NCBI GenBank assembly: GCA_003144275.1
Contig: NJBF01000020.1
Location: 30,001 to 62,000 of the forward strand
Origin: Candidatus Heimdallarchaeota archaeon B3_Heim
Lineage (GTDB): Archaea > Asgardarchaeota > Heimdallarchaeia > Hodarchaeales > Hodarchaeaceae
Direction of reading: 5' to 3'
Length of the DNA stretch: 32,000 bases
A program made the position numbers and the translations under genes. The notes below the pieces were generated by a model. It searched no databases, had not been told where the DNA came from, and saw only the letters and a program-made list of their open reading frames with translations. Below, piece by piece: positions 8,772 through 28,113 of this stretch (position 1 is the first letter of the stretch; the number at the start of each line of letters is the position of its first letter).

Positions 8772-11700
8772 TTATTTTTCCTTTAGATTTTTAGATCTTT
8801 TCAGAATTACAAAGCCTACCAACAACGACCACAACATGAAATCCCACTGAAAACCTGAGCTATTCTTAGTTTTCTCTGTTACCGTTCCTATGTTAAAAAC
8901 AAACGAAATTGAGGCCGAATTACCCGCAAGATCATAAACGGTTACCCGTATAGTGTAGGAGCCTGTTTCATAATTGTCTGGAGTAAGATCTTTTTCTATG
9001 TAATATCCTGAACTTGTGATATTTATTTTTGGACCACTAAAACCAATTTTATTACCATTGAGAGTCATTTCTGCGGAAAATTGATCGATACCCGATCCAT
9101 CATCGCGGAACCAGAATATAATTTCAGTAGTTTCCACTAGGTAGGAGTTATTTTCCATTCCCCTCATCCCTATGACGGGTGCTGTTTCATCGGTAATTAT
9201 TTCAAAAGATACAACTTCAGAGTTCCATGTAAAGTTGAAAAGATGCACTCCTTGAGTTAGTGGGTAAGTAAAATTATACCAACCATTTAAACCAGTTTCT
9301 GGTATTTCTGTTGTTATATCGGACTCAACACCGAATGTAGAATTACGATAAGATCCAGAAATGCTTACTGAATTATTTGGTAAATAATTCGTCGAAGCGT
9401 GAAGCGAAACGGTTACAACATCATCTGTCACTTCATAAAACCCGTATAATTGGGATTCAGCTGAAATATAAGCTAGAATATCTGATACCAGAAAATTATT
9501 GAATAATGTGTTTGTATATTCAAACCCTTCATTTATCTCATTATTATAACCACGATTGGTAATAAAATTACTTCCCGAAACAACAACAACCCTTCCACCT
9601 AGGGGATAATCATAGGATGCCATAACAACATTCTCCCGTTGGTTCAGATAAGCAAGGGGGGTTGCGGTATTTGTCAACTCAAAATAGGATCCAGATGCAT
9701 CAAAATACTCTGTTGATGTTCCAATGGAATTGAAATGGGTTAATTGCGCAGGAGTAGTACCAAAAGACGGTGATAATTCACTTGTCTGTATACCCCATTT
9801 TTTCATCATATTCTCCATTCCTATTGGGGTGGTATAAGGTGTGAGTATTAGCCCACCTCCACTACTAACGAATGAAGTGATTGCGGATTGTTCAGACGCT
9901 GATAGAACAGTTAAAGTATCTTCGGATATTACTAAATCAATTGCTGATAAATATTCCCACGTTTGAGTTGTACGATTATCGGCTGCAAACCATAGGACAT
10001 CATAGTTAGAAAGTGCTTGAGGAGTAATCTCAGATTTATTTTCATTGAGAACTATTCCTTGCTTACTTAGATCTATTTTTAGATCCAGAAATTTTCCCTT
10101 GGTATTATATGAAAACACTGGTCTATTCCCGGTATAGAATAATACTTTTTGTTTAGCAGGCTCCACATTTATAGTGAAGGAAATCCGTTGGATTTCTGTC
10201 GAATTAACTTGAAACAAAATATCCCCAGAATAAAGCCCAAGTGGCTCATTATCTGCAACATTCACCTCGAGAACAATATCATGTGAGAAGTATTCAGATA
10301 ATTTACTTGTTGCTAAATCATTGTGGCTACTCTTTAAGGACTCAGAATCATTGACCCACTGTTGTTCTTTCAACGTAATAATTGAAGAAAGATTTCCAGT
10401 TGTCTGGATGGACACGTTCACAGTTTCTGATGATGTGAACGAAAATAATTCAGAAAAGTAGGAACCTTGAAGCACGTTAGGAAATTTCATGAAACCTAAT
10501 TCTTTAGGATTGACGGTTCCTGTTATTATATGATTCCCAACTCTTGGAGCAGCCAAAAGATATTCGTACGCGGCTGAGGCATTAACCTGACCCGCGCCTT
10601 GTGCGTTTAGATCCACTCCAATATCTGTAGCAGTAGCCATAAGTGCAGCTTTTATCGTTCCTGGGTTTACATCAAGATTATGTTCTCTCATTGCTCCAAG
10701 AAGAATCGCTGAGACACCTGCAACATGAGGAGCGGAAAATGATGTACCTTGAGGGGTACCATATCCACCTTGCACAGCGGGAGTTGGAACAGCAGTACCT
10801 GGTGCAATCACATCAGGAGAAACTGCATCTGTCCTCCAGATGGGACCACGACTGCTATAAGTTGCCATTGCTTGCATTCCTTCATTTGTTGCTCCAACAG
10901 TAATTTCATCAACAAAATTGTCAGCAGAGATTGTATACATAGTTCCCCCATCATTACCAGCGGAATGTACAAAAATTACTCCTTGTTTTGTTGCTTGACG
11001 AATTGTAGCTAATCTTAGTTGATATCCAGGATATAAAATCAAGTCCCAATAAGCTTCTTCGCCATCTGAAATCCCATAACTCCGATTAATGACATCTACA
11101 CCATTTTCTATTGCCCAATTAATCGCAGCAATTTCACCTATGAGAGTCATATCTAACAAATCTTCTGGGCCTTCATCAACATCGGCATCTAAAATCCACG
11201 ATTCAGTAGCTATTCCTTGGTTACTCACTGTTTGAATTCCACCACCAGCAGCAATTCCAGCGACCCATGTACCATGAGATCCCGCAATATTATCCAAATC
11301 TTCCTCATTACCATAAGTAGTATTAACAAATCCCTCTGCTGCCTTGATACGGGATGTACCATTTGCAAAACTAAAATCAGGATGACTAGCATTTATACCT
11401 TCATCAATAATACAGATTGTCGTCCCTTGTCCCTTATAACCTAGCTCCCATAATTTATCTACACCAATAACTTGAGCTGATACTAATGATTGAACAGATG
11501 GATTAACAACTGAATATTGATCGTGTCGAGAATTGGGGATAAAATTACCCTTATTACCCGAAGTAATAGGATAAAAGTTCTGATATGCCAGATATGCATT
11601 ATCTCTTACTATTGAAGCTAATTCGGTGGAAGTAGCTTTGATTGTAACCCCTAATAGTCCGTTAAAATTAAGCCCTGTATCATATCTAGATATAAAACTA

Positions 11701-11930
11701 GTATATTCTGATGATTTTTCGAAGAAAATCAAATAGATACTCTCTTCAGTCCCTTGAATTTCTAGAACCTCTTTTTCTAAAACCTCTACCTCTTTGGAAA
11801 TACTTGAAATATCAATCATTTGCTCAGAAGATGAGATATTCAAAATAATATTAGATTTACTCGTTAAAATCACAAAAAGTAATATGAAGATTGGTGTAAA
11901 TTTTAGTAACTTGCTATACCTTGTCATCAA
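8772..11930 (-). CDS. Secreted, membrane-anchored S8 (subtilisin-like) serine protease with Ig-like and GATase-like (DUF4350-type) domains; MBTPS1/site-1-protease-like architecture
   Basis: Signal peptide; triad D176 (IIDEG), H219 (HGTWVAG), S397 (GTSFSAP); oxyanion SAGNDG; many N-x-S/T sequons; C-terminal hydrophobic segment with a basic tail. Confidence 0.9.
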   Translation of the reverse strand: MMTRYSKLLKFTPIFILLFVILTSKSNIILNISSSEQMIDISSISKEVEVLEKEVLEIQGTEESIYLIFFEKSSEYTSFISRYDTGLNFNGLLGVTIKATSTELASIVRDNAYLAYQNFYPITSGNKGNFIPNSRHDQYSVVNPSVQSLVSAQVIGVDKLWELGYKGQGTTICIIDEGINASHPDFSFANGTSRIKAAEGFVNTTYGNEEDLDNIAGSHGTWVAGIAAGGGIQTVSNQGIATESWILDADVDEGPEDLLDMTLIGEIAAINWAIENGVDVINRSYGISDGEEAYWDLILYPGYQLRLATIRQATKQGVIFVHSAGNDGGTMYTISADNFVDEITVGATNEGMQAMATYSSRGPIWRTDAVSPDVIAPGTAVPTPAVQGGYGTPQGTSFSAPHVAGVSAILLGAMREHNLDVNPGTIKAALMATATDIGVDLNAQGAGQVNASAAYEYLLAAPRVGNHIITGTVNPKELGFMKFPNVLQGSYFSELFSFTSSETVNVSIQTTGNLSSIITLKEQQWVNDSESLKSSHNDLATSKLSEYFSHDIVLEVNVADNEPLGLYSGDILFQVNSTEIQRISFTINVEPAKQKVLFYTGNRPVFSYNTKGKFLDLKIDLSKQGIVLNENKSEITPQALSNYDVLWFAADNRTTQTWEYLSAIDLVISEDTLTVLSASEQSAITSFVSSGGGLILTPYTTPIGMENMMKKWGIQTSELSPSFGTTPAQLTHFNSIGTSTEYFDASGSYFELTNTATPLAYLNQRENVVMASYDYPLGGRVVVVSGSNFITNRGYNNEINEGFEYTNTLFNNFLVSDILAYISAESQLYGFYEVTDDVVTVSLHASTNYLPNNSVSISGSYRNSTFGVESDITTEIPETGLNGWYNFTYPLTQGVHLFNFTWNSEVVSFEIITDETAPVIGMRGMENNSYLVETTEIIFWFRDDGSGIDQFSAEMTLNGNKIGFSGPKINITSSGYYIEKDLTPDNYETGSYTIRVTVYDLAGNSASISFVFNIGTVTEKTKNSSGFQWDFMLWSLLVGFVILKRSKNLKEK

Positions 11931-12431: not shown

Positions 12432-13151
12432 TTGGCTTTACTGACAAACATATTAACAAAATGGTTTAAAAAACCAGCTGAACCAACAGAAAAGGAAATG
12501 ATTAAAGATTTCATTCAAGAACTTGACTCTGTCCTAATATCTATGGAAGAAATGACAGAAGATATGACAAACGGTTTTAGCGACCAGGTAATTCAACGAC
12601 GACCACTCTCGACAAAACTCATGGCTTATTTACCGAAATTTATGCAATCTAAAAATACTCGATCCCAAAATGAGAAATTAATTGAATTGAAGAATACAAA
12701 ACAGAAAATGCGTACATTAAGGGGAACATTATCTAAAATTGATGAATCTGTTGATTCAATGGATCTCCATGCTGCTCCCCTTGAGGGAGAAGAGGTCGGG
12801 AGTAGAATTTACGAGCTTGCCTATCCTGGAGAGACAATAACCTCTTCAAAAGTGAGAACATTAGAGGAAAGGCTGCAAATGCTTGAAAATTCGTTTTTAG
12901 CTTCAATGGACCAAATAAATGGGCAGATGAATCAGATATCATCAAATTTGCTAACACTAACTCAAAGACTTGAGGAACAAGGGGTAAAAATAGACCGTAT
13001 TGATGAAAAAATTACCGATGTTCAATCAAAATTACAAAAAATCCAATCTACTTTGGCAAAAATATCTCGGAAACTGACTCAAAACAGAACACTATTAGCA
13101 CTTTTGGTTGGGTCTGTAATTGCTCTCGTGATTGTCATAGTCATCCTTTGA
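12432..13151 (+). CDS. Tail-anchored Qc-SNARE-like coiled-coil protein
   Basis: Heptad layers are centred on Q183 (RLEEQGVKIDRI); a single TM helix (221-239) sits at the extreme C-terminus; the N-terminus is helical. TTG start after a GAGG RBS. Confidence 0.75.
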   Translation: MALLTNILTKWFKKPAEPTEKEMIKDFIQELDSVLISMEEMTEDMTNGFSDQVIQRRPLSTKLMAYLPKFMQSKNTRSQNEKLIELKNTKQKMRTLRGTLSKIDESVDSMDLHAAPLEGEEVGSRIYELAYPGETITSSKVRTLEERLQMLENSFLASMDQINGQMNQISSNLLTLTQRLEEQGVKIDRIDEKITDVQSKLQKIQSTLAKISRKLTQNRTLLALLVGSVIALVIVIVIL

Positions 13152-13288
13152 GCGTAAAAGAATACTGAAAATGTTAGTTAAAATGAGACCCCAGAAAATA
13201 TAAGAAAAAGAATATAAGGAATAAGGAAAATAAGGATTGTTGAGTGGAAGAATGAATAGAAGGTTAAACAGAATTAGGTGAAGACTGG

Positions 13289-13762
13289 ATGCAACAAAGA
13301 GACGAAATACACCGCGAGTTAACTCGTCTATTAAAAAGTGATACATCAATTAAAGTGACTTTACTAGGTGATAGAACAGGTTTAACGATTGCTAGAGCCT
13401 CAAGACTATTAGTATCAGCAACTATGGGAGCATTTGATCTTGAAAGTATTGGAGCGATTGCTTCTGCGGTGTTTTGCGGCGCAGCAGAACAAGGAAGTGC
13501 CTTAACTCTTGGGGAGCTTGGTATTATGTTGGCTGAATTCACTGATGGCAAAATATTGACCGCTCAAAGTGGAGAAAGAGGAGTTTTAGTAGTAGTCGCA
13601 GAATCAGATGCTCAATTGGGGTTGATCCGAATGCGGATGAAAGAATCATCAGAGTCGTTAGCCTCACTCATGGATAGATTAATAGAGCCATCTGCCGTTA
13701 AAATGAAGAAACCCGAATCTCAATCAATAATGGCCGCACTTAAAGAACTCGAAAACTTTTAA
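13289..13762 (+). CDS. Roadblock/LC7 (MglB/LAMTOR2-like) domain protein
   Basis: 'TLLGDRTGLTIA...ESIGAIASAVFCGAAEQGSALTLGELGIMLAEFTDGKILTAQSGERGVLVVVAESDAQLGLIRMRMKESSESL' matches the Roadblock pattern (DxxGL.I, xxaAxxs, L.VVa.xxA.LGL.r..m). AGGTGA RBS. Confidence 0.88.
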   Translation: MQQRDEIHRELTRLLKSDTSIKVTLLGDRTGLTIARASRLLVSATMGAFDLESIGAIASAVFCGAAEQGSALTLGELGIMLAEFTDGKILTAQSGERGVLVVVAESDAQLGLIRMRMKESSESLASLMDRLIEPSAVKMKKPESQSIMAALKELENF

Positions 13763-13775
13763 CCGTCCAACGATT

Positions 13776-13787
13776 ACTTTTTTTTTC
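13776..13787 (+). terminator. Oligo-T putative archaeal terminator after the Roadblock gene
   Basis: Run of 9 T about 15 nt after the stop codon at 13762. Confidence 0.4.
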
Positions 13788-13857: not shown

Positions 13858-14469
13858 GTGCCTTATTCCCAACTAGATGACGTTATTTTGAAGTTAACTG
13901 ATGAAGTTACGGTTCAAGTCCTAAATATTTTATTAGAAGAAAGAGAAATTATTGATGAAGACATTGTGAATATTCTAAATGAGGGATTGGATCAAGGGAA
14001 TCAAGAGACTGAGGCCCCTGAAGAAAACAATATTCCGAGGATTGCTCTCAAAGAAGTCAGAAAATCACTATATAAATTAAATGAAAGATCTCTCGCAAGG
14101 TACCGACGAGTACGTGATAAAGAAACGGGTTATTTTGTATATTACTGGTCACCTATTTGGGAAAGGATTCGAGACTTAATTGTCAGTCGTCGGAAGCAAA
14201 CAATAAAGAAATTGAAGCAACGCTTAGACTATGAACAACGAAACCTTCTTTATGTGTGTGAAGAAGGACATACACCAGTTACTTTTTCTGATGCATTTGA
14301 ATTTGGATTTTTATGCACCGTCTGTGGACAAGAACTTGCTCAAAAGGAGAACGCAGAGACAATTGCAATTCTACAAACCAAGATAACCGAGCTAAAAAAG
14401 ATTCTCAAAACAGGTTTAGAAGAAATAGAGGGGATTGAAGAGAGAATGGAAAAGGCTGTCAACAGCTAA
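13858..14469 (+). CDS. tfe: Transcription initiation factor E (TFE/TFIIE-alpha)
   Basis: Winged HTH 'EVRKSLYKL...LARYRRVRDKETGYFVYYW'; Zn ribbon 'YVCEEGH...FSDAFEFGFLCTVCG'. GTG start. Confidence 0.9.
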   Translation: MPYSQLDDVILKLTDEVTVQVLNILLEEREIIDEDIVNILNEGLDQGNQETEAPEENNIPRIALKEVRKSLYKLNERSLARYRRVRDKETGYFVYYWSPIWERIRDLIVSRRKQTIKKLKQRLDYEQRNLLYVCEEGHTPVTFSDAFEFGFLCTVCGQELAQKENAETIAILQTKITELKKILKTGLEEIEGIEERMEKAVNS

Positions 14470-27925: not shown

Positions 27926-28113
27926 GATTGAGGCACAAAATAATTCCGTTCTGAAAGACTTACCCAAATGGGACTGATAAGAATAATCAAGAAGAATTAT
28001 TCGAAACAACCGTTGGAGCTGTTCTTCCTGATTCATCGACGCGTGCCTGCTCTGATGCAGGTCTTACCACCTCTCCACAGACATTTAAGGTCTCCGCAGA
28101 ACTCTCGGCGACC
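27926..28113 (-). ncRNA. Predicted TnpB omegaRNA (reRNA) scaffold plus flanking guide
   Basis: Hairpins at 28089-28113, 28046-28061 (CCTGC-N6-GCAGG) and 27981-28002 overlap the tnpB 3' end and run to the right end. The guide would be the host flank AATTATTTTGTGCCTCAATC. Confidence 0.45.

Follow-up and report, generated by a model that had tools for sequence, protein, structure and literature searches.

In a 32,000-nucleotide (nt) stretch of a contig from Candidatus Heimdallarchaeota archaeon B3_Heim, an Asgard archaeon of the Hodarchaeales within Heimdallarchaeia (GenBank NJBF01000020.1, positions 30,001 to 62,000; hereafter the window), two neighbouring genes encode a Q-SNARE-like protein of the Heimdall type and a Roadblock/LC7 protein of the MglB type, which we call ROBL-S. 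A preliminary description of this DNA had pointed out that the two genes are co-oriented, that their 137-nt spacer is purine-rich and free of oligo-T, and that a T9 tract follows the Roadblock gene. It read the pair as a probable transcription unit and as the possible mark of an undescribed membrane-fusion or polarity system. Its observations are confirmed: the genes occupy 12432-13151 and 13289-13762, both on the plus strand; the spacer is 73.7% purine, against 51% on the plus strand of the window, with no T run longer than two; and the T9 tract lies at 13778-13786. Its interpretation is borne out in part. Each gene taken by itself is an ordinary member of a known family, and the linkage of the two is an undescribed, lineage-restricted and testable lead of modest strength, which sequence comparison recommends as a lead and not as a demonstrated module. 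The features of the locus are the following.

12432-13151, plus strand: open reading frame of the Heimdall-type (Hod clade) Q-SNARE-like protein (gene 1), 239 amino acids (aa), TTG start, tail-anchored
12489-12755, plus strand: N-terminal helical region of the SNARE, helices at residues 20-54 and 74-108 (AlphaFold2; predicted local distance difference test score, pLDDT, 76-92 by block)
12897-13076, plus strand: SNARE motif, residues ~156-215, 16 heptad layers (VAMP2 alignment, family alignment)
12978-12980, plus strand: CAA codon of Gln183, layer 0 (VAMP2 alignment)
13089-13148, plus strand: C-terminal membrane anchor of the SNARE, residues 220-239, with the basic linker SRKLTQNR before it (sequence, VAMP2 alignment)
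13152-13288, plus strand: intergenic spacer, purine-rich, 137 nt (composition)
13204-13220, plus strand: block resembling a B recognition element (BRE) and TATA box, GAAAAAGAA and then TATAAGG, a candidate promoter of the Roadblock gene's own (spacer alignments)
13253-13263, plus strand: conserved motif TGAATAGAAGG (GTGAATAGAAAGT in congeners; spacer alignments)
13276-13281, plus strand: Shine-Dalgarno-like AGGTGA, 7 nt 5' of the ATG (spacer alignment)
13289-13762, plus strand: gene of ROBL-S (gene 2), MglB-type Roadblock/LC7 protein, 157 aa, ATG start (open reading frame, Pfam, model, tree)
13724-13759, plus strand: C-terminal tail helix of ROBL-S (…SIMAALKELENF; …ALKELENF), past a flexible linker (model, family alignment)
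13778-13786, plus strand: T9 tract, candidate archaeal termination signal, 16 nt past the Roadblock stop codon (sequence)

The SNARE-like protein

Judged by its sequence, gene 1 encodes a genuine Q-type SNARE-like protein, a member of a small and already published Heimdall SNARE family. Its Pfam matches stay below the cut-offs (SNARE 19.3 bits against 26.8, Synaptobrevin 19.2 against 26.4, V-SNARE_C 19.5 against 27.1). The best sequence match in the PDB is VAMP2 (3hd7_A, E 0.002), with an alignment that runs without a gap across 83 residues. In this alignment Gln183 falls on Arg56 of VAMP2 and hydrophobic residues occupy all 15 other layers, namely M159, I162, M166, I169, L173, L176 and L180 in layers -7 to -1 and I187, I190, I194, V197, L201, I204, L208 and I211 in layers +1 to +8. 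The heptad-layer positions of VAMP2, with Arg56 as layer 0, are taken here as established. The SRKLTQNR linker is followed by 20 hydrophobic residues that close the protein and are aligned on the VAMP2 membrane helix. At the other end, the model shows long helices at residues 20-54 and 74-108, both confident, and a short helix at 121-130 that has low confidence. The start codons of orthologues align with the TTG of the window, and several of them are ATG.

A family profile built on 34 members has Gln at layer 0 in 31 of them and His in three (L021:580-1287, minus strand; L067:2432-3145, minus strand; L072:30-707, plus strand). With E-values of 1e-49 to 1e-96, the profile matched in 19 of 21 genomes of family f1, 2 of 2 of f2, 11 of 12 of f5, the single genome of f6 and 3 of 3 of f7; no match was found in f3 (0 of 31) or f4 (0 of 12). 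The window protein is homologous to members from Heimdallarchaeaceae and Kariarchaeaceae. An exhaustive profile search recovered only about 16 full-length clusters among 1.84 billion representatives, and one query at E 1e-25 found no such SNARE outside the class in a sample of 400 Asgard genomes, 83 of which belong to the class. The window SNARE is 23-30% identical to the members in f5, f6 and f7 (alignment A2). Searched by words, it reached congeners only (at least 54% identity), and the SNARE of genome G023 reached only itself.

The family has been published as the Heimdallarchaeota prototypic SNAREs HPS1 and HPS2 (Neveu et al., bioRxiv 10.1101/810531; Bentahar et al. 2026, bioRxiv 10.64898/2026.10.19.760048), with about 50 members in Heimdallarchaeia, Hodarchaeales included (Bentahar et al. 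2026). The HPS1 motif (residues 157-215) was crystallised as a homotetrameric parallel four-helix bundle with Q183 at layer 0, a stable assembly shown for HPS1 alone, and the same structural paper leaves the function of archaeal SNAREs open (Bentahar et al. 2026). The N-terminal extension of the HPS proteins has been described as a likely three-helix bundle. The gapless VAMP2 alignment, Gln183 at layer 0 and the homology to the HPS1 family thus bear out the Q-SNARE-like label given earlier to gene 1. The notion of an undescribed system is weakened, since the SNARE family is already the subject of these two papers. The adjacency of the two genes is another matter: the HPS papers make no mention of gene neighbours, Roadblock proteins or operons, so that the adjacency is not described there, and no mention of it was found in the literature searched.

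The Roadblock protein and its paralogue

As modelled, gene 2 encodes a Roadblock protein of the MglB-type fold. It matches Pfam Robl_LC7 (PF03259) at 28.0 bits against a cut-off of 23, and its AlphaFold2 model (pLDDT 82.7) runs H2-17, E21-28, E33-38, H48-71, E79-84, E87-94, E98-104 and H110-130, that is, alpha-beta-beta-alpha-beta-beta-beta plus a helix. A linker (131-146, pLDDT below 55) then leads to a tail helix at 147-155. The top Foldseek matches, all with probability 1.00, are the Prometheoarchaeum Roadblock 9jue (E 6e-11, TM-score 0.89 on the target, 25% identity), the MglB proteins of Thermus and Myxococcus, a Thorarchaeota Roadblock and LAMTOR subunits.

The preliminary description had singled out an MglB-like tail helix in this protein. 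The helix is present in the model, but it is no peculiarity of this copy. Across all seven families, 24 of 25 sequences of ROBL-S and of a paralogue, ROBL-P, carry the tail A-L-x-E-L-E-x-F without change or nearly so. Since the same tail is found throughout the Roadblock family, including the paralogue that lies beside a small GTPase gene, it is not special to ROBL-S. In Myxococcus, the C-terminal helix of MglB docks on MglA and provides nucleotide exchange (PMC11016934). The analogy with the MglB tail is therefore reasonable, yet it would point to a GTPase and not to the SNARE.

ROBL-S and ROBL-P differ in distribution. In a class-wide search, orthologues of ROBL-S (130-308 bits) were found in families f1 and f2 only, and each of the other families gave a single match, at 60-84 bits, which clusters with the present genome's ROBL-P copy. 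This copy, on contig C57, scored 93 bits. In the tree, the SNARE-adjacent ROBL-S clade (support 93/90) is nested inside the wider ROBL-P family. A word-based Roadblock profile search was swamped by the class-wide P family. From these comparisons, ROBL-S is a Hodarchaeales-specific duplicate of the class-wide, MglB-like ROBL-P. Both copies are kept in all 21 Hodarchaeum genomes, the present one among them, at 85-99% identity for ROBL-S and 83-98% for ROBL-P, and the genome studied here has seven Roadblock genes and about 46 small (Ras-superfamily) GTPases.

A Ras/Arf-type GTPase gene lies 3' of ROBL-P, 43 nt away in this genome and 28-70 nt away in 20 of 20 congeners. It also follows ROBL-P in G023, and in genome G022 the two genes are adjacent but convergent. 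The 32-kb window itself contains no small GTPase gene, and the nearest one on its contig lies some 28 kb off. The full order at the ROBL-P locus of the present genome (L075, contig C57:13500-21500 of G000) is A24 peptidase, ROBL-P, Ras/Arf GTPase, a small open reading frame, a second and divergent Roadblock, and a 264-aa TPR protein, the last of which matches Pfam SNAP (soluble NSF attachment protein) at 24.4 bits against a cut-off of 25. Outside Hodarchaeales, ROBL-P is followed not by a GTPase gene but by a gene of about 270-280 aa (L077:3557-4396, L084:3502-4305 and equivalents); two scanned copies, one from f3 and one from f5, match KaiC/RecA-like Pfam families at or just below the cut-off. 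At other loci, two ROBL-P neighbours of about this size, placed divergently, matched no Pfam family. The tailed Roadblock family also extends past Heimdallarchaeia, with a 40% identical member in P0322, labelled Candidatus Odinarchaeia.

Conservation of the adjacency

All 18 Hodarchaeum congeners whose contig continues past the SNARE gene have the Roadblock gene next, in the same orientation; in the remaining genomes the contig breaks there. Synteny within the genus reaches as far as the TFE and polyprenyl synthase genes, so the pairing within the genus says little by itself. The pair is also kept in G023 (family f2), where the SNARE is 37-41% and the Roadblock 58% identical and the spacer is 73 nt long; its flanks there are a membrane/zinc-ribbon protein upstream and, across a scaffold gap, a Ski2-like helicase downstream. 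A soil-metagenome lineage (P0078) carries an S-type Roadblock fragment 688 nt 3' of the SNARE gene, the stop codon lying near the contig end. Contig breaks fall in or beside the pair in four of the 21 Hodarchaeum assemblies (G012, G017, G018 and G020), which hints at variability among strains.

Elsewhere in the Hod clade the pairing is absent. In G022, tandem SNARE genes lie beside nuo genes, and ROBL-S, on a different contig, has a gelsolin-domain gene as its neighbour. The SNARE genes are also in tandem in two more lineages (L131 and L133), with no Roadblock gene within 5 kb. In the P0076 lineage the SNARE gene is 3.3 kb from a 162-aa gene, a putative Roadblock gene, that lies on the opposite strand next to a TFE gene. 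The pairing is thus present in three of the seven sampled Hod-clade lineages and absent from four. The tandem duplications, each with no Roadblock nearby, occurred in three separate lineages (L022:2978-4470, L131:4264-5717 and L133:4213-5637), and around the tandem pair of L133, within 5 kb, there are four GTPase genes of the Arf/Ras type.

For families f5, f6 and f7, the retrieved flanks of the SNARE gene contain no Roadblock gene in any of 15 genomes examined. A 349-aa protein that matches no Pfam family lies beside the SNARE gene or within about 3 kb of it in 13 of these 15 genomes (f5 and f7), in three arrangements: downstream, divergent and upstream. Copies are at L024:4457-5506 (plus strand) and L025:3946-4995 (minus strand), with homologues in L023, L062, L064-L068, L070, L071, L073 and L074; the homologue in the present genome (31% identity) is on contig C15:2683-3660, away from the SNARE gene. 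In yet another SNARE clade (P0079/P0083; L145:3221-6473 and L147:4001-7092), the SNARE gene has as neighbours a small GTPase gene and the gene of a 535-aa TPR protein, which is homologous between the two loci and faintly matches the SNAP family. The two GTPases are just 25% identical, so that the TPR neighbour alone looks conserved there. Small GTPase genes near the SNARE in other clades were considered as a conserved partner and rejected, not being orthologous to one another.

The synteny survey proposed in the preliminary description has given a divided answer: the pairing holds in all 18 congeners, G023 and the soil lineage, and fails in four of seven Hod-clade lineages and in all 15 genomes of f5 to f7. 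With seven Roadblock genes in a genome, we estimate a chance of about 0.2-0.4% that one is the immediate neighbour of a given gene, so that chance alone would hardly account for the adjacency. Even so, all its present cases go back to one past event, passed on by descent. Its presence in three of seven Hod-clade lineages, together with its absence from f5 to f7, makes it look ancestral to the Hod clade and partly retained, and not a trait of the whole family.

The spacer and transcription

The length of the spacer is variable: it measures 106-456 nt within Hodarchaeum, while that of G023 is shorter (73 nt) and that of the soil lineage longer (688 nt). For comparison, ROBL-P and its GTPase gene are separated by 28-70 nt. 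In two alignments, of 19 and of 15 Hodarchaeum loci, length changes and insertions are confined to the 5' part of the spacer, upstream of the BRE/TATA-like block, and the 3' ~90 nt are conserved. Across the genus, GAAAAAGAA is directly followed by TTTAAA, TATAAG or TTTATA, which resembles an archaeal BRE/TATA pair. The GTGAATAGAAAGT motif of congeners is recognisable in the spacer of G023 as well, and all 15 aligned congeners have the Shine-Dalgarno core GGTG unchanged, at a distance of 7-8 nt from the ATG. In six of 19 loci, T5-T7 runs occur between the SNARE stop codon and the BRE/TATA-like block. The T tract past the Roadblock gene is T8 in the two closest congeners and T4-T5 or a pyrimidine-rich stretch in most others.

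RNAalifold found no conserved RNA structure in the 100 nt 5' of the Roadblock start codon. A scan for sigma-70 promoters and hairpin terminators, which is not applicable to archaea, gave nothing above shuffled sequences. A sediment metatranscriptome contributed two read-length contigs, both on the Roadblock gene (13263-13413 and 13485-13635) and none across the spacer, which speaks neither for joint nor for separate transcription; other RNA runs held nothing useful on the SNARE-Roadblock locus.

To judge from the conserved block, transcription of ROBL-S probably starts at its own BRE/TATA-like element. In G022, where ROBL-S stands alone and away from the SNARE genes, it is necessarily transcribed without an upstream SNARE gene. 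Two separately promoted genes are most likely, and a single operon is a weak reading of the locus; read-through from the SNARE gene is possible in this genome and is not required. The earlier claim of a probable transcription unit is accordingly weakened by the 73-688 nt spacer, by the BRE/TATA-like block with its Shine-Dalgarno sequence and by the T5-T7 runs in six congeners.

Interpretation

The explanation that we favour, with a confidence somewhat above even, is that the two genes are neighbours by descent: a Heimdall-type SNARE and a Roadblock protein acting on a small GTPase, most likely with separate promoters. By homology to HPS1, the SNARE would form parallel four-helix bundles on membranes, its 16-layer motif with the layer-0 residue Gln183 mediating the assembly. 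ROBL-S would have arisen in the Hodarchaeales lineage by duplication of ROBL-P. It keeps the dimer-platform fold and the C-terminal helix that serves MglB as exchange element, so it most likely regulates a small GTPase. Its target may be one of the about 46 in this genome, for which a Roadblock dimer with its tail helices could form a platform of the GTPase-activating protein (GAP) or guanine nucleotide exchange factor (GEF) type. The fold, the paralogy and the ROBL-P/GTPase linkage are the grounds for this assignment. The Hod SNARE clade would have had the adjacency to the SNARE gene from its beginnings and kept it in part, with ROBL-S transcribed from its own BRE/TATA-like element and read-through from the SNARE gene optional. 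Several points weigh against this explanation. No GTPase gene lies beside ROBL-S. The spacer of this genome lacks an oligo-T run, which makes read-through from the SNARE gene plausible, and where DNA is AT-rich a sequence that resembles a promoter does not prove that transcription begins there. Finally, the pair has survived changes around it: compared with Hodarchaeum, where the flanks are the subtilase and TFE genes, both flanks are different in G023, and so is the upstream one in the soil lineage. Such survival in three deep lineages, beyond the other flank of the SNARE, could reflect selection.

A second view, in line with the preliminary description, is that the pair is a true functional module, with at least partial co-expression by read-through and with ROBL-S acting on the SNARE, either directly, in trans and longin-like, by holding the SNARE motif closed, or by coupling a small GTPase to the SNARE-bearing membrane. 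We regard it as unlikely. The co-orientation, the spacer without a T run in this genome and the persistence of the adjacency in 18 of 18 congeners, G023 and the soil lineage despite changed outer flanks are all consistent with it, as is the origin of ROBL-S only in the lineage where it adjoins the SNARE gene. The three Hod-clade lineages without a nearby Roadblock (about 5 kb) have tandem SNAREs, so those loci have been rearranged. However, the pairing has been lost from four of seven lineages, and in G022 both genes persist apart. None of the 15 genomes of f5 to f7 has a Roadblock gene in the retrieved SNARE flanks, the conserved neighbour being the 349-aa protein (13 genomes), another clade has the 535-aa TPR protein, and the spacer is long, variable and furnished with a promoter-like block. 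Small GTPase genes near the SNARE in other clades would suit this view, but they are not mutually orthologous (25% identity), and with about 46 GTPase genes in a genome such proximity comes cheaply. Co-folding of SNARE residues 1-214 (alignment A2) with ROBL-S (alignment A3) scored 0.00, below the mark, which is no verdict either way. The boldest form of this view, in which ROBL-S was turned by duplication of an MglB-like protein into a dedicated regulator that would clamp the Q-SNARE in trans or recruit a GTPase to SNARE-bearing membranes, is a long shot; if true, ROBL-S would be a prokaryotic forerunner of GTPase-controlled SNARE fusion.

It is also conceivable, but rather improbable, that ROBL-S is the second subunit of a Roadblock heterodimer with ROBL-P, after the manner of LAMTOR2/3 or MglB-MglC; in that case its function would lie with the ROBL-P/GTPase locus, and the SNARE gene would be no more than an incidental neighbour. 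The two are sister paralogues with the same dimer-forming fold and the same tail, both are highly conserved and kept in all 21 Hodarchaeum genomes, and the structural matches include the heterodimeric LAMTOR subunits. Against this, MglB as a rule forms homodimers, and so do the Asgard Roadblocks of known structure (PMC10933270). Lastly, gene 1 might encode merely a generic tail-anchored coiled-coil protein and no relative of SNAREs, which would deprive the module idea of its basis. Every SNARE-type Pfam match is indeed below its cut-off and mixed with matches to many coiled-coil families, and a PDB fold search with the monomer model returned generic or designed helical bundles only. Yet a gapless alignment of 83 residues with VAMP2 in the correct 16-layer register, a single polar layer with Gln at layer 0 that recurs in 31 of 34 homologues, and homology to the family of HPS1, itself crystallised as a SNARE-like four-helix bundle with Q183, make this very hard to believe. 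Compared with these alternatives, neighbourhood by descent remains the explanation that we prefer.

To our knowledge, no regulator, partner or disassembly factor of archaeal SNAREs is known, and genome context is the cheapest way to nominate partners. The context of the SNARE gene depends on the clade: a Roadblock paralogue in the Hod clade, the 349-aa protein in the Heimdallarchaeaceae-type families and, in a third clade, the 535-aa TPR protein. Should one of these neighbours prove to bind the SNARE, it would provide a first handle on the pre-eukaryotic control of membrane fusion.

Other genes of the window

Upstream of the SNARE gene, at 8772-11930 on the minus strand, lies an S8 subtilase gene of 1052 aa. 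The N-terminus of the protein resembles a signal or anchor, a membrane segment is found at its C-terminal end, and only within the genus is the gene kept beside that of the SNARE. Also near the pair are genes of a TFE-alpha homologue (13858-14469), of a polyprenyl synthase and of a HAD hydrolase. An IS605-family OrfB/TnpB (Cas12f-like) gene is found at 27987-29267 on the minus strand. The minus-strand gene at 27178-27813 matches the eukaryotic C1orf109-like ribosome-biogenesis family (PF15011), a family also represented near the SNARE gene in L131.

Comparison with known systems

The closest relatives of gene 1 are HPS1 and HPS2. They share with the window protein an N-terminal helical extension, a 16-layer motif at about residues 157-215, Gln183, a basic linker and a C-terminal membrane helix. 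Like it, they usually occur in one copy per genome and are restricted to Heimdallarchaeia, including Hodarchaeales. The window protein differs from them in being a member of the Hod clade.

For ROBL-S, the nearest characterised parallel is MglB of Myxococcus xanthus and Thermus thermophilus, the GAP/GEF of MglA. Both have the same fold with an extra helix, a flexible linker and a short C-terminal helix, and the MglB chain 6izw_B aligns with ROBL-S over 153 columns. The mglB gene lies beside mglA, just as the gene of ROBL-P lies beside a small GTPase gene. On the other hand, MglB is only 17-24% identical to ROBL-S, the ROBL-S gene has no adjoining GTPase gene, and the A-L-x-E-L-E-x-F tail is specific to the archaeal family. 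The best structural matches are single-domain Asgard Roadblocks, 9jue (Prometheoarchaeum Roadblock3), 7yh1 (MK-D1 RB) and 7f8m (Thorarchaeota RB); unlike ROBL-S, these solved proteins have about 120 residues and lack the linker and the tail helix. For MK-D1, Tran et al. (2024, PMC10933270) report that GTPase and Roadblock genes do not as a rule share operons, whereas the ROBL-P/GTPase pair is strictly conserved in Hodarchaeum.

The eukaryotic longin SNAREs VAMP7, Ykt6 and Sec22b also tie an alpha/beta domain of the longin/Roadblock superfamily to a SNARE motif, as is well established (PMC3747258). In those proteins the domain is fused to the N-terminus of an R-SNARE, whereas at the present locus a separate protein of Roadblock, not longin, topology is encoded 3' of a Q-SNARE.

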